From: Candidatus Flemingiibacterium sp.
GTDB lineage: Bacteria; Bacillota; Clostridia; Oscillospirales; CAG-272
Length of the DNA: 64,000 nucleotides
Assembly (NCBI GenBank): GCA_045634005.1
Contig: JAZQZL010000069.1
Coordinates: 3,075-67,074 of the forward strand
Direction: 5' to 3'
Shown here: one piece after another, positions 46,183 through 55,377 of the stretch
Numbering within the stretch: position 1 is the first letter of the stretch
How the letters are laid out: each line of letters begins with the position of its first letter
Position numbers and translations under genes: made by a program
The notes under the pieces: generated by a model
The model's database searches: none
What the model saw: the letters and a program-made list of their open reading frames with translations, nothing else
What the model was told of the DNA's origin: nothing

Positions 46183-46515
46183 TTATTTAATCTCAACGAC
46201 CGTAACGGGCTTGTTTTTCTTTTTTGCATACTCAAGCGTGTATTTCGTTCCCCTCGATACACCGTCCCATATAATAAGCACAGCATCTGCAAGCTCCACC
46301 ATTTCCTCGTCACGCTTTAAGGGCGCACATCTTTTGTATCTGCTATAATTCGGCGTTATGATTATCTTCTCAAGACCGTGTTCATCGGCATACTGCTCCG
46401 CGAGCGTGTCTACCCCCTTCGCGCCGCCGCTTATAATAACCGTCACCTCGGGCGGTATATGCCCTTCGAGGTCAAAGGCGGTGATGCTGCGTGATCCTGC
46501 TATTAATAGTTTCAT
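46183..46515 (-). CDS. SLOG-fold protein, DUF2493/YspA-like
   Basis: 110 aa. LIAGSRS...ISGGAKGVDTLAEQYA...IIWDGVSRGTKY is the DUF2493 pattern. Low-GC gene. Confidence 0.6.
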   Translation of the reverse strand: MKLLIAGSRSITAFDLEGHIPPEVTVIISGGAKGVDTLAEQYADEHGLEKIIITPNYSRYKRCAPLKRDEEMVELADAVLIIWDGVSRGTKYTLEYAKKKNKPVTVVEIK

Positions 46516-46549: not shown

Positions 46550-46600
46550 ATTATACAATCTAATAACATAATTGTCAAGTGAATATATATTTATTAAAAT
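46550..46600. promoter_or_regulatory. Back-to-back promoters with overlapping -35 boxes
   Basis: Minus strand: TTGACA (46573-46578), 17 bp, TATAAT (46550-46555). Plus strand: TTGTCA (46572-46577), 17 bp, TAAAAT (46595-46600). Confidence 0.55.
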
Positions 46601-46623
46601 ATATATCGAAGGGATGTGATATT

Positions 46624-46827
46624 ATGATTAGAATGACCGTAAAGGAGTTTCTTGATAGTCACAACATCACAAGATATGAGTTATCAAAGCGAACGGGCGT
46701 ACATTTTCAAATAATAGACGGTTACTACAAAAACAAAATAGTCCGCTATGACAGCTACATCTTAAATAAAATATGCGAGGCACTTGATTGCGATATCTGT
46801 GATATCATTGAGTACACGAAAGACTAA
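46624..46827 (+). CDS. XRE/Cro-type helix-turn-helix protein (67 aa)
   Basis: Start refined to ATG 46624 (MIRMTVKEF). The ITRYELSKRTGV...YDSYILNKICEALDCDICDIIEY pattern is typical of HTH_26-like small regulators. Confidence 0.7.
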   Translation: MIRMTVKEFLDSHNITRYELSKRTGVHFQIIDGYYKNKIVRYDSYILNKICEALDCDICDIIEYTKD

Positions 46828-46830
46828 AAC

Positions 46831-46857
46831 GCCGCGAATGCAATATGCATTCGCGGC
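46831..46857. terminator. Bidirectional terminator (HTH gene / GTPase gene)
   Basis: GCCGCGAATGCA-ATA-TGCATTCGCGGC, a 12-bp perfect stem. Confidence 0.8.
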
Positions 46858-46865
46858 TTTGCCTT

Positions 46866-48077
46866 TTATTTCTTTTTAAACAGCTCCATGACCATCTTAA
46901 CGATATCCTTGCTGTCGGTCTTATCGCTCACCTTCGCGGCAATATCCTTTACCTTGCCGATAAGATCAGAGGAAAGTCCCGACTCTGCAACCTTCGTCAC
47001 CCAATTGATGTCCTCGACAGTCTTTGCGCCAAGGTATATCTGCTCGAACGCATAAATGCTAACCTCGCCGATAGCAGCGACTATCGTTCCCGCAATTACT
47101 GCATTGAGAACGCCTGCCGCTATATTTATACCGGGTATAGCCTTAAGCGCGCTTATAAGTGCCCTTGCGGCAACGCTGACCGTTCCGACCTCGACTATTG
47201 AGTTAAGAAAACGCTTTGACTGCTCGTTGTTTTCGATTCCGTATAACCTCGCAAGCGTGTTTATCTCGGCAATTTCGATCGGCGAGAGAATAAGCGCATC
47301 TGCAAAGGGTATCGGCACAGCACCGACTACCACCGCCGCACTCGTCGCAACGCCGACGACACTATGCGCAAACGCACGGCGTCTTGCAAGATTAAAATTA
47401 TGTATGTCGACAACCGCCGCCTTGATACCCTCAGGCATAAGGTCGTTTGTCGCACTGATAAGCTCGGTTATTCCCTCGGGCGGCGCGTATGCGGTGTCGT
47501 TGAGCGCGTACGTTGCGGCGACTACAGGATATACGCCGCGAAGATTCTTGGAATAGCGCTTTTGTTTTGCAAAGGCGTTGTTGACCATCTCTATGTTACG
47601 CTCGCGCTCGGGAACCGAATAGGATTTCGTGATAGCGACCATAACGGGCACGTTCTCCCACATAGCCGTCGCACTCGACAGATTTTTGATGGTTTCCTCA
47701 AAAAGCTTGCTCGAGGTACCGTCAACACAGAACCATATAACGTTTATCTGACCGTTACCGTTCTTAGCACTCGCCTTCGACCACGCCTTGACCGCATTTA
47801 TCGCCTTCTGCCGCTTTAAAAATGACGGTTCAAAGCCGAGCGTGTCGATAATGCGGAAGGGTATTTTATCGCTTTCGTATATTTCGAGCTTTTGGGTAGT
47901 GCCTTCAATACCCCAACCTGTTTTTGCCGCGTCCTTGCCGAGCACGGCGTTGATAAGAGTCGATTTACCGACGCCCGAATTTCCTATGACGAGTACGTTG
48001 CCCTTGTCGGGCGAGGAGGGGATAAGTGCGGACGTATCCGCATCGGTTGACTTGATGGGAAGATTGTTTTCCTGCAT
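46866..48077 (-). CDS. P-loop GTPase (MMR_HSR1/YeeP-like) fused to a DUF697 (YcjF-like) membrane-associated domain
   Basis: G1 GNSGVGKST, G3 DTLG. C-terminal VVGAVPIPFADALILSPIEIAEINTLARLYG is the DUF697 signature. Confidence 0.6.
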   Translation of the reverse strand: MQENNLPIKSTDADTSALIPSSPDKGNVLVIGNSGVGKSTLINAVLGKDAAKTGWGIEGTTQKLEIYESDKIPFRIIDTLGFEPSFLKRQKAINAVKAWSKASAKNGNGQINVIWFCVDGTSSKLFEETIKNLSSATAMWENVPVMVAITKSYSVPERERNIEMVNNAFAKQKRYSKNLRGVYPVVAATYALNDTAYAPPEGITELISATNDLMPEGIKAAVVDIHNFNLARRRAFAHSVVGVATSAAVVVGAVPIPFADALILSPIEIAEINTLARLYGIENNEQSKRFLNSIVEVGTVSVAARALISALKAIPGINIAAGVLNAVIAGTIVAAIGEVSIYAFEQIYLGAKTVEDINWVTKVAESGLSSDLIGKVKDIAAKVSDKTDSKDIVKMVMELFKKK

Positions 48078-48150: not shown

Positions 48151-50727
48151 TTAATTGCCGTTCTCGATAAACTCACGTATCTGCCGCTCGGTTTCCAAAA
48201 GCTCTGCGCGAAAGCCGCTGGCGGACACGCGTATCGCTCCGTTCCCGAGAATTATAAGCTGCTCCTCGTAATCGGCGGTAGCCACGCGTACACGATGATT
48301 TTTGGCAAGCTCGTGCGACACGCGCTCGATATAGGTATCGGCGGTTTCCGCTTCCTTTGTGTAGACTACGGTGATGTTGTTTACTCGCTCGATATCCTCG
48401 CCGTGGCGCTTTATCCTGTACGCGTCGAAAACGAGTATCACCTCGCAGTCGCGCACACCGCGGTAATTGCACATTCGGTCTATGAGCGTATTTCGCGCGA
48501 TATCAAGTCCCTTTTCGGATAGTGCGCGAAGGTCGTCCCACGCGTGTATTATATTGTAGCCGTCGACAAGGAGATATTCGCCGCCGCTGTATGCGCTTTT
48601 CTTTGGCGGCGCGGATTTTTTCTTAACAGCCGGCACAGCCATTTTCGGCTCGCGGTCATTGTAGCGTTTTCTTTTGATAGGTCCGTACGTACGCTCGAAG
48701 ATGCGGATAAGCTCCTCGCTGTCCGCGACCGTGCGCATATAGCGTTGCACACGCGTTTCGGGCTCCTCGTCACCTCCGTCAAGCTCCACGCCCGACTCGA
48801 GATGCTTATGCTCGTACACCTCGTCCCATTTGACGACGAATCCCGCGCCGTGCTCGCAGAACACCGAATCAGCGGTATTTTCAAGGTCGCGGTCGGCATC
48901 GTAGCCGCACTCAGCTATGACCGCATGGGTATCTGCGCATTCCTCATAACCGCGAAGCGAGGTCATAATCTTGCCCTCGCCCTTGGTGTAGGAGATAAGC
49001 TCGCGGTGATAGCCGCGCATTTTCGAAACGGGCGCACTTCCCGTAAGGCAAGTGTAGGCGGGCGTCACCTCCGGTTCTCCGAGCCTGCCGCCCATTTGCA
49101 TAATATCCGTCATCGCGCGTCCGACGCACTCCGACGGGAGCTCGATGCGAAAATCGTACCACGGCTCGAGCAGTATGCACTCTGCCGTACGCAGTCCGTG
49201 ACGTACAGCACGCCACGTCGCCTCTCGAAAGTCGCCGCCCTCGGTATGCTTCAGATGAGCACGACCCGCTATAAGCGTTATTTTCATATCGGTTATCGGT
49301 GAGCCCGTGAGCGTACCGATGTGCGTTTTTTCATAAAGATGCGAGAGAACGAGTCGCTTGTAATGTCCCTCAAGCTCGCACTCGGGATCGACGGCGAATT
49401 TAAGACCTTCTCCGCGAGGTAGCGGTTCAAGAAGCAGCTGTACCTCCGCATAGTGGCGAAGCGGCTCATAGTGACCGATGCCGACGTTTGCAGCGCGCAC
49501 AGTTTCCTTGTAAGAAATACTACCGTCGCTGAAGGTGACGGTCATTGCATAGCGCTCGGCGATGATGCGAGTAAGCACCTCAAGCTGTACCTCGCCCATA
49601 ATGCCGAAATATATCTCGCCGCTGCGCTCATTATATATGATGCGAAGCGAGGGCTCCTCCTCTTCAAGCTGACGGAATTTTATGAGCGCCGTATGCGCGT
49701 CCACTCCGCTTGGCAGGTCGACTCGGTAAGAAAGCACCGGCTCAAGCTGTGCCGCGCCCGAATCCTTTTCTGTTCCGAGTCCCATACCGGGATAAGCCGA
49801 CGAAAGACCCGTGACGGCGCATACAACGCCCGCCTCGGCTTCGTTTACGGTCTTATATTTTTCGCCTGAATATATACGTATCGCATTTATCTTTTCGCTC
49901 CACTCGGTGCCGTCTGGAAGCACGCCGGAAAGCGTGTCCTTTACACAAAGTGTACCGCCCGTTATTTTAACGTGTGCGATCTTGTCAGTTTTGTCCTGCG
50001 TTATCTTGTAAACGCGTGCACCAAACTCATTGGTGTATTCGGGTATCTTAACGTATTTCGCAAGCCCGTCGAGGAGAAGATCAACTCCATCTCCCTTCAG
50101 CGCCGAGCCAAAAAAGCAAGGAAACAGCCGTCTTTGCGCCACCGCCGAGCGGATATCCCCATCGTCAAACGCCTCGCCCGCAAGATAGCTTTCCATAAGC
50201 CTCTCGTCGCACATAGCAAGCTCGTCCGCAAAGCTTTCAAGTGTCATCGCACAGAAGTCTACGCATCCGTCGCAAAGCTTATATTTAAGCTCGGACATAA
50301 GCTCCTTGTGTGAAAGCGCGGTGACGTCCATCTTATTTATGAATATGACCGTCGGTATGCCGTAAGATTCGAGCAATCGCCAAAGCGTGAGCGTATGGCT
50401 CTGTACGCCCTCCGTTCCGCTCACGACGAGCACAGCCGCATCGATAACGCGGAGCACGCGCTCCGTTTCGGGTGAGAAATCCACGTGCCCCGGTGTATCA
50501 AGAAGGTTGAACTCGACCTCACCGCGCGTGAACGTCGCACCGCTTGAGAAGATCGTAATTCCGCGGTCGCGCTCGATCGCGTTCGTGTCGAGATGCGAGC
50601 TTCCCTTGTTTACGCTTCCGAGTGTGTGGAGTACGCCCGTTTTGTAGAGTATCGACTCCGAAAGCGTGGTCTTGCCCGAGTCGACGTGCGCGATTATTCC
50701 GACGGTAAGGCGCTTTAATGCTCCCAT
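48151..50727 (-). CDS. Tet(M)/EF-G-like translational GTPase fused to a C-terminal Rae1/YacP-type NYN endoribonuclease domain
   Basis: Residues 1 to ~640 carry AHVDSGKTTL, DTPGH, NKMD and GSVNKGSSHLDTNAIERDRGITI (Tet(M)-like). Residues 715-858 (nt 48154-48585) carry LLVDGYNIIHAW, ILVFDA, YTKEAETAD and VATADYEEQ (Rae1-like). The ORF is uninterrupted. Confidence 0.8.
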   Translation of the reverse strand: MGALKRLTVGIIAHVDSGKTTLSESILYKTGVLHTLGSVNKGSSHLDTNAIERDRGITIFSSGATFTRGEVEFNLLDTPGHVDFSPETERVLRVIDAAVLVVSGTEGVQSHTLTLWRLLESYGIPTVIFINKMDVTALSHKELMSELKYKLCDGCVDFCAMTLESFADELAMCDERLMESYLAGEAFDDGDIRSAVAQRRLFPCFFGSALKGDGVDLLLDGLAKYVKIPEYTNEFGARVYKITQDKTDKIAHVKITGGTLCVKDTLSGVLPDGTEWSEKINAIRIYSGEKYKTVNEAEAGVVCAVTGLSSAYPGMGLGTEKDSGAAQLEPVLSYRVDLPSGVDAHTALIKFRQLEEEEPSLRIIYNERSGEIYFGIMGEVQLEVLTRIIAERYAMTVTFSDGSISYKETVRAANVGIGHYEPLRHYAEVQLLLEPLPRGEGLKFAVDPECELEGHYKRLVLSHLYEKTHIGTLTGSPITDMKITLIAGRAHLKHTEGGDFREATWRAVRHGLRTAECILLEPWYDFRIELPSECVGRAMTDIMQMGGRLGEPEVTPAYTCLTGSAPVSKMRGYHRELISYTKGEGKIMTSLRGYEECADTHAVIAECGYDADRDLENTADSVFCEHGAGFVVKWDEVYEHKHLESGVELDGGDEEPETRVQRYMRTVADSEELIRIFERTYGPIKRKRYNDREPKMAVPAVKKKSAPPKKSAYSGGEYLLVDGYNIIHAWDDLRALSEKGLDIARNTLIDRMCNYRGVRDCEVILVFDAYRIKRHGEDIERVNNITVVYTKEAETADTYIERVSHELAKNHRVRVATADYEEQLIILGNGAIRVSASGFRAELLETERQIREFIENGN

Positions 50728-51758
50728 TTTCCGCTTGTGTCCTTTTCGCCGTTGTAAACGCTCATAAAGTCCGCGTAATTTTTCTTTAAAAGATTCGGTA
50801 TGTCAAGCTCGTACGGGCACTTTTTAGCGCACGCTCTGCACTCGGTGCAGTTTTCGATCTTTTTGACCTCGCTCGCCCACTTTTCATTGACCCAATCGCT
50901 CGCAGGAGCACGGCGTATCATAAGCGAGATACGCGCACACTGCCATATGGTTATACCCTGCGGACACGGCATACAGTAGCCGCAGCCACGGCAAAAGTCA
51001 TATCCCATCTCTGCCTTTTCAGCTTCGATGCGAGCCCTCATTTCATCGTCGAAGGTAGGCTCGTCGGTCATAAGCGACAGCCACTGATCGAGCTCATAGT
51101 CATGCTGCACGCCCCATATCGGCACAACGTTGTCAAACTGCGAGATATACGCATAAGCAAGACGGTAGTCAGTTATAAGACCGCCTGCGAGCGCCTTCAT
51201 CGCGATAAATCCGACGTTATGCTCGCGGCAGAGGCTCACAAGCTCTACCTCACGCGCCCCCGACAGATACGACAGCGGGAACTGCATCGTTTCGTAAAGA
51301 CCCGATCGCACGCAGTCCTCGGCAACGCCGATCTTGTGGCAGGTGATTCCGATGTGGCGTATCATTCCCTGACGCTTCAAGTCCTCCATACACTCGTACA
51401 TACCCGTGCCGTCACCGGGCGCGTAGCACTTATCCGAGCAGTGGAACTGATATATGTCAACGTAATCGGTCTGCAGATTTTTAAGCGAGGTTTCTATCTG
51501 CCGCTTTACCTCGTCGGGAGTTTTAGCGCCGGTTTTCGTTGCAATAGCAACCTTGTCGCGCACGTCGTGAAGCGCGATGCCACACTTTATCTCGCTGTCC
51601 GAATAAGCGCGTGCCGTATCGAAAAAGGTCATACCTCCCTCGTATGCGCGGCGGACGATGTTCACCGCAGTATCGGTGTCATCACGCTGTATCGGAAGCG
51701 CACCAAATGCGTTTTGAGGGGTTTTAATGCCGGTAGATCCAAGAGTTATCGTTTTCAT
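50715..51758 (-). CDS. Aldo/keto reductase with a C-terminal 4Fe-4S ferredoxin-type domain
   Basis: AKR N-terminal pattern (GSTGIKTPQNAFGALPI, FDTARAYS). C-terminal CRGCGYCMPCP and CTECRACAKKCP clusters. The stop overlaps the start of the next gene by 13 nt. Confidence 0.8.
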   Translation of the reverse strand: MKTITLGSTGIKTPQNAFGALPIQRDDTDTAVNIVRRAYEGGMTFFDTARAYSDSEIKCGIALHDVRDKVAIATKTGAKTPDEVKRQIETSLKNLQTDYVDIYQFHCSDKCYAPGDGTGMYECMEDLKRQGMIRHIGITCHKIGVAEDCVRSGLYETMQFPLSYLSGAREVELVSLCREHNVGFIAMKALAGGLITDYRLAYAYISQFDNVVPIWGVQHDYELDQWLSLMTDEPTFDDEMRARIEAEKAEMGYDFCRGCGYCMPCPQGITIWQCARISLMIRRAPASDWVNEKWASEVKKIENCTECRACAKKCPYELDIPNLLKKNYADFMSVYNGEKDTSGKWEH

Positions 51759-51863
51759 ATAAATCTCCTTGGTTATGATTATATAATAATTATATCATAT
51801 ATAAAGAAACGTGTCAATAAAAAACGCTCTGCCGTACTGCAGAGCGTTATATTATATCTCGTC

Positions 51864-52733: not shown

Positions 52734-54134
52734 TTATTCGTTAACAGTCGTGTTAGCTGTGCTGTCAGCCTTCTCGGTGCCAAGGTACTCGGGCAGCTTC
52801 ATACCCGCCATATCGAACATCTCGTTCATCGGAGGGATCGCCTTCATCATACCGGACACAAAGTTAGCGGTAGCAGTCTTACCGTCAGCGCCCGTGCTTC
52901 CGCCGTCCCAAACGGTGACCTTGTCGATCTTGAGGTTCTTGATAGCCTCAACCTGAATCTTGGTGATCTCCTCAAGCTTGTCAGCAACCATAAGACGGAT
53001 AGCGTCGTTCGACTCGCCGCCGGCGCTCTTAACGATCTCTGCAAAGCCCTCTGCCTGCTTGATGAGCATATCTCGCATACCGTTTGCCTCTGCCTGCATC
53101 TTCATCAGCGTAGCGTCAGCTTCACCCTTTGCCTGACGTCTGATTCTTTCAGCCTCTGCCTCTGCCTTGAGTTCGATCTGCTTCTTTTCGATTTCAGCCT
53201 TAACGAGGATATCAGCCTCGAGCGTTGCCTGCTCAAGTGATGCACGCGCAAGCTCGGCAGCCTTCTGTGCGGCGTACGCCTCCTCGAGAGCCTTTGCCTC
53301 CTGGATCTTCTCGGCTGCGGTAGCGCGCTTCAGCGCCTCTGCCTCACGCTCGCGGCGTGCTGCATCGGACTCTGCAACCTGAACCTTCGCCTCATTTTCA
53401 CCCTTGATAGCCTCGGAGTTTGCGATAGACACGTTGATACGCTGGTCGCGCTCTGCGTTAGCCGAACCGATAGCACCCTCGCGGTCTGCCTGTGCAACGG
53501 AGATCTTTGCGTCATTGATAGCCTTCGCAGCCGCTTCCTTACCGAGAGCCATAATGTATCCGCTCTCGTCGGTAATATCGGTTACGTTTACGTTAATGAG
53601 GCGCAGACCAATCTTCTTAAGCTCGGTCTCCACGTTTCTCGAAACCGCCTCAAGGAACTTATCGCGGTCATTGTTGATCTCCTCTATCTCCATCGTTGCA
53701 ACAACAAGTCGGAGCTGACCGAAGATGATATCCTTTGCAAGCTCTTGAATATCGTCGAGCTTTAAGCCGAGCATACGCTCCGCCGCATTCTGCATAACGC
53801 CTGCCTCGGTGGAAATACCAACGGTAAAGCGCGAGGGAACGTCAACGCGGATATTCTGCTTCGAGAGTGCATTGCGAAGATCTACGTTTATAGACATAGG
53901 CGTTAAGTCAAGGAACTCGACAGCCTGAATAACGGGCCATATAAATGCCGCGCCACCGTGAATACACTTTGCGGAGCGCGAGGTGCCGTCGGCGTTATTG
54001 CCGACCTTACCGTAAATTACCATAACCTTGTCGGACGGGCACTTTCTGTAGCGCGATGCGATAACCACAAGCGTTGTCACAACCAAAAGCGCGATCACGC
54101 AAACGAGAATAAGCAGATTAGAAGTGTTTGGCAT
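52734..54134 (-). CDS. Flotillin (SPFH/band-7 family, FloT/YuaG-like)
   Basis: N-terminal TM, SPFH domain, and long Ala/Glu-rich coiled-coil repeats (EAERIRRQAKGEADA...). Confidence 0.85.
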   Translation of the reverse strand: MPNTSNLLILVCVIALLVVTTLVVIASRYRKCPSDKVMVIYGKVGNNADGTSRSAKCIHGGAAFIWPVIQAVEFLDLTPMSINVDLRNALSKQNIRVDVPSRFTVGISTEAGVMQNAAERMLGLKLDDIQELAKDIIFGQLRLVVATMEIEEINNDRDKFLEAVSRNVETELKKIGLRLINVNVTDITDESGYIMALGKEAAAKAINDAKISVAQADREGAIGSANAERDQRINVSIANSEAIKGENEAKVQVAESDAARREREAEALKRATAAEKIQEAKALEEAYAAQKAAELARASLEQATLEADILVKAEIEKKQIELKAEAEAERIRRQAKGEADATLMKMQAEANGMRDMLIKQAEGFAEIVKSAGGESNDAIRLMVADKLEEITKIQVEAIKNLKIDKVTVWDGGSTGADGKTATANFVSGMMKAIPPMNEMFDMAGMKLPEYLGTEKADSTANTTVNE

Positions 54135-54153
54135 AATATTTTCTCCTTTATAA

Positions 54154-54753
54154 TTATTTTACAATTCTTTCAATTACAACGAGTCCCGATTCGTCTATGG
54201 AAACGACTCTTACAGTTTCTCCGGTCTTAAAAGCGTCCTCGCCGCCCGAAATGGCATCGACTTCGATGAGTCTGTCCTGCACGGTGAGTGTGATCTTTCC
54301 TCTGCCCTCTCCCTTCGGCGGTACAGGTATGTACACCTCACCCGTTTTGCCGATTGCGTAGCCAAGCTGAATATTACCGCTCGACTGTAGCTTCAACACA
54401 GCCTTCATAAGATACGCAATACCGAAAAGTGCTGCCACACCGCATACCACCGCAAGCAGTATCGCGGCTGCAGGATTAAGACCTAAATCGACGAATACGA
54501 CACCGGCCCAGCCGCCAACCGAAAACATCGCAACGATGCCGCGAACGGTAAAAAGCGTCAGTCCGTCGTCACCTGATGCAGCCTCGGATATCTCAACGCC
54601 GTCAACGTCCGTATCCACGTCAACATCGCCGTCGCCGTCGCCGATGCCAAAGAACAGAAGCACCGTCTGAACAATAAGCACAAGTGTCGCCGGAATAGCA
54701 AGAAGAGCAAATCCCTGCTGAAGTGCAGTTAACGAATCCCACCAAGCAAACAT
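54154..54753 (-). CDS. NfeD-like membrane protein (YuaF-like partner of flotillin)
   Basis: N-terminal TM helices, an acidic loop, and a C-terminal OB-like segment GKTGEVYIPVPPKGEGRGKITLTV. Sits immediately upstream of flotillin. Confidence 0.7.
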   Translation of the reverse strand: MFAWWDSLTALQQGFALLAIPATLVLIVQTVLLFFGIGDGDGDVDVDTDVDGVEISEAASGDDGLTLFTVRGIVAMFSVGGWAGVVFVDLGLNPAAAILLAVVCGVAALFGIAYLMKAVLKLQSSGNIQLGYAIGKTGEVYIPVPPKGEGRGKITLTVQDRLIEVDAISGGEDAFKTGETVRVVSIDESGLVVIERIVK

Positions 54754-54795
54754 TATTATCTACGCTCCTTTACAAAAACATATCTGTCAAACTTT

Positions 54796-55377
54796 TCAAC
54801 GTTTAAAAACTTCGTCGTACATTAGGCTTGCGTGCTGACGCACGAGCGTTGCGTAATACGTCATTATGATGATGCCACAAGCCCGTTCGAGGCGTTTTCT
54901 CGCACCCGCACCGTGCTCCTCGTAGGATGCAAGCTCGTTTGAAATCAGGTCATAAATATTACCGTCTACCGTTGCCTCATCGCGAACAAGACAGTCAATA
55001 AGCCGACAAAGGCAATCATAAAGCCCTGACTCGGGAATAATATCGTCGCGCGTATCGTTTACGTCACCGTTTACATAGGCGAGAATTGCCGCGATCCGGT
55101 CAAGCTGCATTGAATCGCGCATCATATTTATAATGAGTATGCGCGCAAGCTGATTTTTATCGTAACGCTTATTTTGTGCGCTCGATACCCAGCCGCGCTT
55201 GGTCCAATTTTGGAGAGTTGAGCCGTCGATTCCGCATATCTCCCGTATCTGTGAGAGCATAATGCCGTCGGTGATGTAGAATATCTTATCAAGAAACTCC
55301 ATTCCCGTGACGTCGCCCATCTTCTTTCTTTCCATAATGGTGCCGGGAATGAGAGTGCTCCTTATCTCAAGCTTCAT
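54796..55377 (-). CDS. DUF1836 family (MerR-like HTH) protein
   Basis: MLSQIREICGIDGSTLQNWTKRGWVSSAQNKRYDKNQLARILIINMMR resembles the DUF1836 core. RBS AGGAGGG. Confidence 0.6.
   Translation of the reverse strand: MKLEIRSTLIPGTIMERKKMGDVTGMEFLDKIFYITDGIMLSQIREICGIDGSTLQNWTKRGWVSSAQNKRYDKNQLARILIINMMRDSMQLDRIAAILAYVNGDVNDTRDDIIPESGLYDCLCRLIDCLVRDEATVDGNIYDLISNELASYEEHGAGARKRLERACGIIIMTYYATLVRQHASLMYDEVFKR

Follow-up and report, generated by a model that had tools for sequence, protein, structure and literature searches.

Rae1 is a translation-dependent mRNA endonuclease whose action at stalled or collided ribosomes feeds into the tmRNA pathway (PMC12407103; PMC13622287), and a 2025 revision placed its cut site 12 nt upstream of the A-site codon (PMC12407103). 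A fusion of a Tet-like GTPase to the NYN_YacP domain that Rae1 represents has been catalogued twice. Atkinson 2015 (BMC Genomics 16:78, Additional file 8; PMC4342817) reported the architecture and listed its sequences in ten species, and Matelska et al. 2017 (NAR 45:6995; PMC5499597) reported it as well. Both papers noted the domain combination only, framing it as possible antibiotic resistance or rRNA processing (PMC4342817; PMC5499597); in 2017, function was known for no NYN_YacP member (PMC5499597). Atkinson 2015 precedes the 2017 discovery of Rae1 function, and both catalogues precede the 2025-26 model of stalled and collided ribosomes. An earlier note on the DNA studied here, made from its letters, knew of no experimental description of such a protein; our literature search likewise found no experimental study of the fusion protein, although the architecture itself had already been catalogued by bioinformatics.

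In this study, we examine a fusion gene of this kind in the window, the whole 64,000-nucleotide stretch of DNA that was analysed. The reading we favour, with somewhat better than even confidence, is that the gene encodes a single-chain, ribosome-targeted endoribonuclease that cuts mRNA. A Rae1 domain naturally joined to a GTPase of the factor site narrows the possible answers to how Rae1 locates ribosomes that have stalled or collided, and to where it sits when cutting.

Architecture of the fusion gene and its product

The fusion gene is one unbroken ORF of 858 codons plus a TAA stop, with an ATG start, at window positions 48151-50727. The earlier note had described a single uninterrupted ORF of this length, and this was borne out: internal stops number zero, and the strand is now fixed as minus. 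The peptides quoted at that time (AHVDSGKTTL, DTPGH, NKMD, GSVNKGSSHLDTNAIERDRGITI, KRKRYNDREPKMAVPAVKKKSAPPKK, LLVDGYNIIHAW, ILVFDA, VVYTKEAETADTYIE and VATADYEEQ) are all found in the translation, and the sequences given for comparison were correct, that of Tet(M) agreeing with 3j9y and that of B. subtilis Rae1 with 5mq8. The protein begins with a five-domain EF-G/Tet-type GTPase (residues 1-642), continues through a tether of some 75 residues and closes with a YacP/Rae1 NYN domain (residues 717-858); its features are as follows.

48151..50727, minus strand: whole fusion gene, 858 codons plus TAA, ATG at 50727
50050..50709, minus strand: G domain, residues 7-226 (GTP_EFTU), with G1 AHVDSGKT, switch-I RGITI, G3 DTPGH (catalytic His81) and G4 NKMD
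49798..50019, minus strand: domain II, residues 237-310, weak Pfam EF-G_D2 and GTP_EFTU_D2 matches, confident beta-barrel in the AF2 model
49531..49743, minus strand: domain III, residues 329-399 (Pfam EFG_III)
49183..49521, minus strand: domain IV, residues 403-515 (Pfam EFG_IV)
49444..49482, minus strand: domain IV loop I, GHYEPLRHYAEV, residues 416-428, a clade-specific motif
49225..49266, minus strand: domain IV loop III, GRAHLKHTEGGDFR, residues 488-501, equal in length to Tet(M) loop III
48931..49173, minus strand: domain V, residues 519-599 (Pfam EFG_C)
48802..48930, minus strand: clade-specific C-terminal module, residues 600-642, helix, beta-hairpin, helix (AF2 pLDDT ~74-87)
48673..48801, minus strand: acidic spacer and two low-confidence helices, residues 643-685, ending in the fusion-specific conserved motif ELIRIFERTYGP
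48580..48672, minus strand: basic Lys/Arg/Pro linker, disordered, residues 686-716 (AF2 pLDDT <50 for 687-711)
48154..48579, minus strand: NYN_YacP (Rae1-type) endoribonuclease domain, residues 717-858 (Pfam; PDB 5mq8, 1.7e-23)

Pfam matches to GTP_EFTU (residues 7-226, E 4.6e-51), EFG_III (329-399), EFG_IV (403-515, E 1.8e-13), EFG_C (519-599, E 7.1e-18) and NYN_YacP (PF05991; 719-855, E 1.2e-45, 155.9 bits against a cut-off of 24.6) all fall on one polypeptide, as had been anticipated; the EF-G_D2 match falls just under its cut-off. By sequence the protein belongs to the EF2/EF-G family, having both the GTPase motifs and the five-domain architecture (G, II, III, IV, V), and the body of its AF2 model superposes on ribosome-bound EF-G structures (Foldseek, E 2e-50). 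The motifs G1, RGITI, G3 DTPGH and G4 vary little or not at all across 90 homologues, and the same holds for G1, G3 (His81) and G4 across 186 fusions. In the proposed reading, residues 1-642 would function as a translational GTPase.

Residues 643-716 behave as a tether, since they are disordered or of low confidence and variable in length, with a linker that is basic throughout the family. AF2 confidence is low at residues 651-686, and well-folded domains lie on both flanks of the tether. A 34-residue stretch of the linker contains 11 K+R, 2 D+E and 5 P. Across the family the spacer measures 33-156 aa and the linker 26-88 aa (median 34 aa), the latter always basic with a net charge of +0.19 per residue. 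The motif ELIRIFERTYGP is absent from unfused relatives.

The NYN domain carries the D-GYN motif and four catalytic Asp; Matelska 2017 recognises NYN_YacP by this motif together with at least four such Asp (PMC5499597). Alignment of the fusion with Rae1 pairs the four as D722/D7, D768/D53, D797/D81 and D819/D104, all identical, and G-Y-N, E792, E794, T795, T817, E822 and Q823 of the fusion are identical to Rae1 as well. This active-site set is invariant in the 90 homologues except for T795, which is nearly invariant, and at least 183 of the 186 fusions retain the four Asp, GYN and the assisting Glu/Thr/Gln. The domain ends at Rae1 position 143 (Pfam profile position 139/166), without Rae1 residues 144-170 (27 residues); the two C-terminal helices with conserved basic residues (profile ~140-166) are missing from the window's protein. 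This tail is worth 16 bits in Rae1 under the Pfam model, and the motif upstream of the fusion NYN is no substitute for it. The description of a complete NYN domain with its acidic blocks intact was thus right about the acidic blocks, identical to those of Rae1, and wrong about completeness. Some members of the fusion family, such as the C. thermocellum type, retain a Rae1-like tail, and its loss is therefore not general to the family. The absence of the tail from the window's NYN domain would fit a transfer of the targeting role to the GTPase.

The fusion gene lies within a putative three-gene unit.

50715..51758, minus strand: upstream gene, aldo/keto reductase (AKR) with a 4Fe-4S dicluster domain, putatively co-transcribed
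46866..48077, minus strand: downstream gene, MMR_HSR1 and DUF697 GTPase of 403 aa, GGAGG Shine-Dalgarno, putatively co-transcribed
51789..51817, minus strand: sigma-70-type consensus promoter by pattern match only, TTGACA, 17 nt, TG-TATAAT, 12/12 matches
51823-51848: terminator-like hairpin preceding the promoter, by pattern match only
46831..46857, minus strand: bidirectional terminator-like hairpin with a 12-bp stem, closing the putative unit, by pattern match only

The fusion ATG (50727) overlaps the AKR stop by 13 nt, and the promoter at 51789..51817 probably drives the AKR, fusion and DUF697 GTPase genes. In the neighbourhoods compared, neither the AKR gene nor the DUF697 GTPase gene lies beside the relatives' fusion genes, and neither is a conserved partner; smpB/ssrA, rqcH and mutS2 had no neighbourhood link in the compared relatives. 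The relatives' neighbourhoods are chromosomal, of housekeeping type and variable, with no conserved gene neighbours, and no mobile-element, phage or defence context was seen around the fusion genes.

The fusion clade and its relation to Tet proteins

The fusion is found widely among gut Clostridia, and the same Pfam set recurs in more than 120 homologues, 846-907 aa long. Within Oscillospiraceae and Lachnospiraceae, identity to homologues falls off gradually, from 91% down to 41%, and many MAG proteins match the window's protein at 56-91% identity. Purifying selection acts on both halves throughout the family. Core identity is 28% to Tet(M) and 40-49% to the unfused clade. Fusions and unfused relatives form one clade with 100% bootstrap, and this clade joins Tet(M) against EF-G, also with 100% bootstrap, in a phylogeny where one sequence represents bona fide Tet. 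A single ancestral fusion event fits this phylogeny, and the GTPase half, as judged from sequence, belongs not to Tet(M/O/W) but to a distinct chromosomal clade, sister to the Tet ribosomal-protection proteins. The earlier label "Tet(M)-type" correctly pointed to a Tet/EF-G-like ribosomal GTPase, but it was imprecise for a protein with 28% identity to Tet(M) and a separate, 100%-supported clade.

The clade is marked by its own motifs. The loop I motif GHYEPLRHYAEV is present in 183/186 fused and 120/120 unfused relatives and absent from Tet(M); in loop III, K493, H494 and T495 are invariant (90 homologues); and the C-terminal module motif DSVFCxHGAGFVVKW...H occurs in 182/186 fused and 120/120 unfused relatives. 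The unfused HxKHT-loop clade is placed in Bacillaceae, Peptostreptococcaceae and some Actinobacteria.

Proposed mode of action and alternative roles

If the protein is a ribosome-targeted mRNA endoribonuclease, its GTP form would dock at the factor-binding site of a ribosome with a free A site (stalled or collided), and the basic, His/Lys-tipped domain IV would enter the decoding centre. The catalytically intact Rae1-type NYN domain would hang on a ~75-residue tether that is rich in Lys/Arg/Pro and disordered in part. Because domain IV would sit in the decoding centre as in Tet(M)/EF-G, the NYN domain could not be in the A site simultaneously; with the A site filled by domain IV, it would most likely cut mRNA outside that site. 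The cut might fall where mRNA enters the ribosome or at the border with an adjacent ribosome, equivalent to the place at which free Rae1 acts. Cleavage would yield a truncated message resolvable by trans-translation (tmRNA), and GTP hydrolysis would then free the factor from the ribosome. Two points weigh against this mode of action: the compared relatives show no neighbourhood link to smpB/ssrA, rqcH or mutS2, and Tet-type factors bind non-rotated ribosomes whose A site is vacant, whereas collided ribosomes are often rotated, with the A site occupied. We infer ribosome binding, RNA substrate, cleavage position, GTP coupling and the tmRNA link of the fusion protein, and by analogy its NYN domain is expected to share the chemistry of Rae1 and its dependence on translating ribosomes. 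The earlier note had arrived at a GTP-gated, ribosome-delivered nuclease by taking the A site as the place of Rae1 action. With a genuine covalent fusion and intact residues, that nuclease remains the most economical reading; the A-site premise falls, having been withdrawn by its proposers in 2025 (PMC12407103).

A wider reading is less probable than not: the HxKHT-loop Tet-like clade, fused and unfused, would be an unrecognised GTPase class that senses stalled or collided ribosomes and licenses Rae1-type mRNA cleavage, the clostridial fusion being a self-contained, GTP-gated, mRNA-cutting rescue factor. Here the fusion is read as a "Rosetta stone", which would tie the unfused HxKHT-loop members to Rae1-type cleavage.

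A minor yet appreciable chance goes to an RNA-processing or ribosome-turnover factor, in which the GTPase would dock on a 70S ribosome, a free subunit or an assembly intermediate while the tethered NYN domain would cleave rRNA or tRNA instead of mRNA, leading to rRNA-end maturation or to the inactivation and decay of damaged or surplus ribosomes. The GTPase-associated centre is indeed nearer to rRNA (sarcin-ricin loop, stalk base, 30S shoulder) than to most mRNA, and the basic linker would bind any RNA. However, the sole experimentally defined NYN_YacP activity is translation-dependent mRNA cleavage (PMC12407103; PMC13622287), the active-site and flanking residues of the fusion are nearly identical to those of Rae1, and rRNA-maturation genes are not conserved beside the fusion in the neighbourhoods compared.

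It is improbable that the protein confers ribosomal protection against tetracycline or another antibiotic, domain IV dislodging the drug and an accessory RNase adding a further protective step. The annotation "TetM/TetW/TetO/TetS family..." and Atkinson 2015 (PMC4342817) suggest such a role, and so do the grouping of the clade with Tet(M) against EF-G (100% bootstrap), a loop III of exactly the Tet(M) length, and a top full-length HMM match to NCBIfam tet_protect, collinear over residues 8-594. In addition, Tet(M) tolerates the S508A/P509A/V510A triple substitution (PMC4750697). The tet_protect score is nevertheless half of the curated cut-off (NF012153; 385.4 against 775), and the other Tet models stay far under theirs: Otr(A) 294 against 900, the M/W family 256 against 1100, Tet(Q) 223 against 1425 and Tet(M) 210 against 1420. 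Identity to Tet(M) is only 28%. Tet(M) Y506-Y507-S508-P509-V510 aligns without gaps to A490-H491-L492-K493-H494 of the fusion, placing an invariant Lys where Tet(M) has the drug-clashing P509 and Ala/His where it has the Y506/Y507 pair; the YSPVS motif occurs in 0/306 clade members. In place of the functionally important C-terminal extension of Tet(M) there is an unrelated module: nothing in the fusion can be aligned with Tet(M) 600-639, and a 43-residue helix-hairpin-helix module with an FCxxGxG..W motif stands instead. Near-identical copies across taxa are absent, as is mobile-element context.

Two carriers bear on the same point. Butyrivibrio proteoclasticus B316, which carries the fusion, was reportedly mutagenised by Cookson in 2011 with Tn916, tet(M) being the marker, and it would therefore be natively tetracycline sensitive. 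Priestia megaterium carries an unfused clade member and is routinely selected with tetracycline-resistance plasmids. The fusion is thus probably not a classical resistance determinant, as the earlier note had maintained: it scores 385 against 775 bits, its loop-III tip is replaced, and it is chromosomal and gradually diverging, with no mobile elements. In abundant gut commensals, clade members with or without the NYN domain commonly bear the annotation "TetM/TetW/TetO/TetS family tetracycline resistance", so annotation-based surveys can inflate resistome counts. The clade should not count as resistance genes without testing, because of its sub-cut-off scores, different loop and C-terminus, and vertical chromosomal inheritance.

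We hold it very unlikely that the protein serves as a regulated toxin or as an effector of shutdown under phage attack or stress, modelled on abortive infection or dormancy, in which a trigger would set off mRNA cutting on all ribosomes and arrest translation. RelE-like ribosome-dependent mRNases do arrest translation by cutting mRNA. A BrnT/CopG toxin-antitoxin pair adjoins the A. rectalis fusion gene, and an HTH regulator gene overlaps or adjoins some members (AraC in one case; also Matelska, PMC5499597). Against this, the neighbours vary with no conserved antitoxin-like partner, the broad vertical distribution resembles that of a core function, and two "Bacteriophage sp." records with the fusion are "UNVERIFIED" and have bacterial housekeeping neighbours. 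PADLOC-DB gave no match for the fusion protein and only weak, P-loop-level matches for two neighbours; with no phage or defence context either, the suggestion of a phage-triggered shutdown finds no support.

Finally, the chance that sequencing error joined adjacent Tet-like GTPase and yacP genes into an assembly or annotation artefact is negligible. Frameshift or misassembly is effectively excluded: the architecture recurs in at least 186 full-length homologues, drawn from MAGs and independent isolates and including finished genomes of ten cultured species; the junction region holds in-frame motifs conserved across the family; and the opposite error is seen, error-prone long-read assemblies breaking the gene into three ORFs.

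Comparison with known systems

If the proposed mechanism is true, the fusion would be the first GTPase-delivered mRNA endonuclease of bacterial ribosome rescue, and the family, present in the tractable or cultured A. thermocellus, R. cellulolyticum, A. rectalis and R. albus, offers a cryo-EM handle on the position of Rae1. Were the wider, clade-level sensor reading true, thousands of "tetracycline resistance ribosomal protection protein" entries would be mis-annotated quality-control factors.

The NYN domain is 39% identical to B. subtilis Rae1 (PDB 5MQ8) over 142 residues. Rae1 is a free 170-aa protein that reaches stalled ribosomes unaided, whereas the fusion NYN is covalently tethered to a GTPase and preceded by a basic linker and the fusion-specific ELxRIFERTYGP motif. 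The GTPase half resembles Tet(M)/Tet(O) (PDB 3J9Y, 4V6V) as a five-domain EF-G paralogue without the translocase-type G' expansion, collinear over ~600 residues (9e-66), and by this likeness its docking site is presumed to be theirs. It differs in the loop-III tip (YYSPV to AHxKH) and in loop I, and it is chromosomal and vertically inherited, whereas Tet(M)/Tet(O) are carried on mobile elements.

SmrB of E. coli and Cue2/NONU-1 of eukaryotes are mRNA endonucleases that sense collisions. The proposed logic is alike, in that a nuclease at stalled or collided ribosomes cuts mRNA and thereby enables rescue. However, their nuclease fold is SMR, unrelated to the NYN of the fusion, and they are recruited through ribosome-ribosome interfaces or ubiquitin, not through a fused GTPase; we know of no GTP gate for any of them.

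Closer relatives are the unfused "translation factor GTPase family protein" members of the clade, of ~650 aa, from Neobacillus, Priestia megaterium/aryabhattai, Paenibacillus and Intestinibacter (Bacillaceae, Peptostreptococcaceae). These have the same motifs as the fusion in loop I, in loop III and in the C-terminal module but stop directly after the module, without spacer, linker or NYN, and are annotated only generically. The catalogued clostridial fusions, which in Atkinson 2015 include Ruminococcus albus 7, Eubacterium rectale, E. eligens, Butyrivibrio proteoclasticus, C. cellulolyticum, C. thermocellum and Desulfitobacterium hafniense, match the window's protein in both architecture and clade motifs, and on these sequence grounds it is a further member of the clostridial Tet-like/NYN_YacP fusion family.

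The fusion gene and its family

The fusion is encoded on the minus strand at 48151-50727 by one uninterrupted ORF of 858 codons that begins with ATG and ends with TAA. The earlier note had reported this ORF without its strand, and all of the peptides that it quoted were found in the translation. As that note had expected, GTP_EFTU, EFG_III, EFG_IV, EFG_C and NYN_YacP are all present on one polypeptide.

Features of the fusion protein
Residues 7-226: GTP_EFTU (Pfam, 4.6e-51)
Residues 329-399: EFG_III (Pfam)
Residues 403-515: EFG_IV (Pfam)
Residues 519-599: EFG_C (Pfam)
After the C-terminal module of the GTPase: acidic spacer, the first part of the tether
After the spacer: two low-confidence helices, ending in the fusion-specific motif ELIRIFERTYGP
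Residues 687-711: disordered Lys/Arg/Pro-rich linker (pLDDT below 50)
Residues 717-858: NYN domain
Residues 719-855: NYN_YacP (Pfam, 1.2e-45)

Among solved structures, the fusion matches Tet(O) and Tet(M) best (9e-66); EF-G scores almost as well. When the C-terminal 170 residues were searched alone, the sole match was B. subtilis YacP/Rae1 (5MQ8/5MQ9, 1.7e-23). An AlphaFold2 model computed from 90 homologues has a mean pLDDT of 80; Foldseek superposes the body of this model on EF-G bound to the ribosome (E 2e-50).

The architecture, which was to be sought in other genomes, recurs widely. More than 120 full-length homologues came back from a protein search; they are 846-907 aa long and 56-91% identical, and every one has the identical domain set. 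Over the whole analysis, 186 full-length fusions were gathered. The in-frame motifs at the GTPase/NYN junction are conserved in the family. Taken together, these results show that the fusion is not an artefact. An internal start at Met694, which would yield a free NYN domain, was rejected because this Met is not conserved.

A linker-plus-NYN query returned 394 clusters (50% identity) at E 1e-30 or better, and many cluster representatives of 830-1156 aa span the entire query. Fusion loci came from Oscillospiraceae, Lachnospiraceae, Blautia, Acetatifactor, Pseudobutyrivibrio and Clostridiaceae; these taxa are a sample and not a census, as the generic DTPGH pattern saturated the genome scan and fusions made up only some 16 of its 80 loci. 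The nearest relatives are MAGs labelled Oscillospiraceae or Ruminococcaceae, and cultured carriers include Monoglobus pectinilyticus, Agathobacter rectalis and ten species listed by Atkinson. Identity to the homologues falls smoothly from 91% to about 40%, and this gradient is the pattern of vertical descent rather than of a mobile resistance gene.

Close stand-alone NYN proteins were considered as split forms or as co-occurring free Rae1 and were rejected, since, where the contig is long, they prove to be the 3' pieces of fusion genes broken up by indel errors. In three error-prone assemblies (L089, L090 and L091; ERZ28754894, ERZ28761912 and ERZ21549408) the fusion is split into GTP_EFTU, EFG_IV and NYN ORFs, and the spurious "stand-alone" NYN database proteins that arise from such splits are 150-300 aa long and mutually 64-97% identical. 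Separately, 12 large C. difficile plasmid records in PLSDB (e.g. NZ_CP149721.1 and NZ_CP033217.1; 96-150 kb) carry a stand-alone "NYN domain-containing protein", a plasmid-borne Rae1 homologue that is 44% identical to the fusion NYN. A Bacteroidota-MAG contig labelled Barnesiella intestinihominis (L021, CAVJLG010000039.1, 10001-12520) holds a fusion 49% identical to the window protein. Next to it, on the other strand, is a further trGTPase gene, which is divergent; the contig most likely belongs to Clostridia and was mis-binned.

A Tet-like GTPase outside the Tet(M/O/W) proteins

The GTPase half had been called Tet(M)/Tet(O)-type. Although Tet-like, it does not belong to the Tet(M/O/W) proteins: its NCBIfam tet_protect score of 385 bits is below the cut-off of 775, it falls far under the Otr(A), Tet(Q), Tet(M) and M/W-family cut-offs, and it is 28% identical to Tet(M). 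A scan of species genomes turned up unfused relatives in Neobacillus, Bifidobacterium and Intestinibacter, with lengths of 648-741 aa. These are likewise below the Tet cut-off, and they have loop I, loop III and the C-terminal module in common with the fusion, whose core is 40-49% identical to them as opposed to 28% to Tet(M). The Neobacillus protein, used as a query, revealed abundant chromosomal copies of the unfused form in Bacillaceae; carriers of this form include Neobacillus, Priestia megaterium/aryabhattai, Peribacillus, Paenisporosarcina and Paenibacillus, where it bears generic names only. Of the 186 fused proteins, 164-183 have the clade motifs, as do 113-120 of the 120 unfused ones; the YSPVS motif of Tet(M) is absent from both sets.

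In a neighbour-joining tree (36 taxa, 639 columns, 100 bootstraps), fused and unfused proteins form one clade with 100% support, and this clade is sister to Tet(M), the only bona fide Tet sequence included, against EF-G (100%). The Bacillaceae and Intestinibacter proteins are the sister group of the fusions, and the Bifidobacterium protein is nested within them (57%). This topology fits one fusion in an ancestor, with a secondary loss and probably a horizontal transfer later on. The Bifidobacterium avesanii gene (L016, NZ_WBSN01000021.1, 10001-12223) encodes an unfused 741-aa clade member that lies phylogenetically among clostridial fusions; about 57 aa of low-complexity sequence are inserted between its domains IV and V. 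An NYN remnant was sought downstream of it and none was found; this gene was probably transferred horizontally with loss of the nuclease.

The G1 AHVDSGKT, switch-I RGITI, G3 DTPGH (His81) and G4 NKMD motifs are invariant or nearly so in the family, and the GTPase is therefore predicted to be active. Domain IV carries two clade-specific loops, GHYEPLRHYAEV (416-428) and GRAHLKHTEGGDFR (488-501). When aligned with a Tet(M) sequence checked against 3J9Y, loop III is gap-free and replaces Y506-Y507-S508-P509-V510 with A490-H491-L492-K493-H494. P509 is the Tet(M) residue that overlaps bound tetracycline (PMC7456112); its position is an invariant Lys in the fusion, and His491 aligns with the tip histidine of EF-G domain IV. 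In place of the Tet(M) C-terminal extension, domain V is followed by a 43-residue module (600-642) with the motif DSVFCxHGAGFVVKW, predicted as helix, beta-hairpin and helix (pLDDT about 74-87).

The nuclease, its tether and the gene neighbourhood

Alignment with a B. subtilis Rae1 sequence checked against 5MQ8 confirmed that the acidic blocks of the NYN domain are intact. Four catalytic Asp residues are identical (fusion/Rae1: D722/D7, D768/D53, D797/D81 and D819/D104), as are the GYN motif, E792, E794, T795, T817, E822 and Q823; the conserved Asp and GYN set are the hallmarks that define NYN_YacP (PMC5499597). Contrary to the earlier note, the domain is not complete, since it ends at Rae1 position 143 (Pfam profile position 139 of 166), without the last 27 residues of Rae1. 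In Rae1 this tail is worth 16 bits of its own Pfam score (203.7 versus 187.6). In the sampled family the truncation is typical, the stretch from LLVDGYN to the C-terminus being 138 aa at the median (range 136-176); the truncation is not universal, because the C. thermocellum/C. cellulolyticum type retains a Rae1-like tail. Loss of the tail in the window lineage would be consistent with targeting having been taken over by the GTPase. The pre-linker motif SEELIRIFERTYGP resembles Rae1 SEEVLKTFEKWRRG; circular permutation of the tail was rejected, since appending the motif to the NYN domain added 2.0 bits, compared with 1.8 to 4.1 bits for shuffled and reversed controls and 16 bits for the real Rae1 tail.

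Among family members the spacer is 33 to 156 aa long and the linker 26 to 88 aa (median 34). The linker remains basic (net charge +0.19 per residue), and the variants of 1000-1156 aa owe their differences to low-complexity sequence inserted in the G' region or the spacer. The tether thus behaves as a flexible one and not as a rigid interface. By a polymer-scaling estimate, its 75 residues would span roughly 70 Å typically and about 200 Å at full extension.

In the window, the fusion appears to belong to a three-gene unit.

The apparent three-gene unit and the adjacent gene pair
51817-51789: consensus promoter, upstream of the AKR gene
Upstream of the fusion: AKR/4Fe-4S gene, whose stop overlaps the fusion ATG by 13 nt
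46866-48077, minus strand: MMR_HSR1/DUF697 GTPase, 403 aa, with a GGAGG Shine-Dalgarno, downstream of the fusion
46857-46831: terminator, closing the three-gene unit
46579-46827, plus strand: Cro/C1-type HTH gene, 82 aa, divergent from the SLOG/YspA-like gene
46183-46515, minus strand: SLOG/YspA-like protein, 110 aa (PF10686, PF12694), with weak PADLOC ShosA/PsyrA similarity

A 73-nt gap without a terminator separates the fusion from the MMR_HSR1/DUF697 gene, whose product ("50S ribosome-binding GTPase") is a second GTPase in the apparent transcription unit. Neither neighbour is a conserved operon partner, as both are absent beside 15 other fusion loci. They are also absent in the 77%-identical relative, which retains only residual synteny and has an AraC-type gene overlapping the fusion start, and in the 70%-identical relative, in which the fusion gene is free-standing. 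AKR genes lie near two unfused genes (loci L015 and L016) but near none in Priestia or another Neobacillus, so this linkage was dismissed as coincidence. The window holds no second NYN or trGTPase gene. No Rfam family reached its gathering score in 1-64000, and no tRNA, riboswitch or leader was found; a leader or riboswitch for the fusion was rejected on this basis and because its start codon overlaps the upstream gene.

The SLOG/YspA-like and HTH pair, with a 12/12 consensus promoter at 46578-46550, lies just past the terminator of the unit. At 52734-55377 on the minus strand are an SPFH/Band-7 protein (466 aa) and, after it, a 199-aa ORF without a Pfam match and a DUF1836/MerR-like protein.

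Full fusion genes occur in two INPHARED records of human faeces scaffolds (MT835563.1, L084, and MT835514.1), both titled "UNVERIFIED: Bacteriophage sp.". In the one inspected, the neighbours are bacterial housekeeping genes (NAD(P)HX dehydratase, mandelate-racemase-like and PG-binding proteins) and no phage domains surround the fusion; this scaffold looks misfiled, and a phage association was rejected. The A. rectalis fusion (L085) is on a 251-kb record typed "plasmid unnamed1" (NZ_CP143948.1) beside housekeeping genes (methionyl aminopeptidase, GatB/YqeY, PP2C and Ser/Thr kinase), and the record may be a chromosomal segment or chromid. A BrnT/CopG toxin-antitoxin pair lies immediately upstream of this fusion.

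A proposed mechanism and its relation to known factors

The observations of the earlier note were upheld, and its interpretation only in part. Its model of cleavage in the A site is outdated and sterically unlikely. We favor, at somewhat better than even chances, a ribosome-targeted endoribonuclease that is docked by its GTPase and cuts mRNA outside the A site with a tethered Rae1-type domain. The analysis shows the domain composition, the intact active sites, the tether, the clade identity and the distribution, whereas ribosome binding, substrate, cut position and GTP coupling are inferred in this proposal. Under it, the Tet-like GTPase would enter the factor site of a stalled ribosome and its basic domain-IV tip would fill the decoding center, while the tethered domain would cleave the mRNA outside the A site. 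It may cut on the entry side or at the boundary to a neighboring ribosome, the site of the cut made by free Rae1. GTP hydrolysis would then release the factor, and the truncated mRNA would pass to trans-translation.

A role in rRNA/tRNA processing or ribosome decay is unlikely. Antibiotic protection with an accessory RNase is more doubtful still: Tet(M) does tolerate substitutions at the loop-III tip, but the NCBIfam Tet scores are below threshold, both loop III and the C-terminus are changed relative to Tet(M), and inheritance is vertical and chromosomal. In addition, the fusion carrier Butyrivibrio proteoclasticus B316 was reportedly mutagenized with Tn916, whose marker is tet(M). A toxin or defense effector is very improbable, and a defense system was rejected, as PADLOC gave no match for the fusion. 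An artefact has a negligible probability.

The fusion architecture has already been described twice, both times only computationally (by Atkinson and by Matelska et al.), and a full-text literature search found no experimental study of any family member, in agreement with the earlier note; the Rae1 papers searched do not mention the fusion. The window gene is a further member of a catalogued, functionally uncharacterized family, and would not surprise database curators. To the two prior mentions, this analysis adds that mobile-element, phage and defense contexts are all absent, that the model of A-site cleavage is outdated and sterically improbable, and that the partner GTPase forms a clade of its own with unfused members too. 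The finding also bears on the labelling of proteins from gut Clostridia and Bacillaceae as "tetracycline resistance", a mis-annotation that is probably widespread. It also adds two comparisons with known factors. Relative to Tet(M), the drug-displacing tip and the C-terminal extension are replaced. Relative to Rae1, the nuclease is flexibly tethered and, in the window lineage, has lost the tail. Work on Rae1 has advanced since the two mentions, and a September 2026 preprint shows that it makes tmRNA substrates from collided ribosomes (PMC13622287). The fusion is a timely and directly testable lead on how Rae1-type nucleases are recruited to stalled ribosomes.
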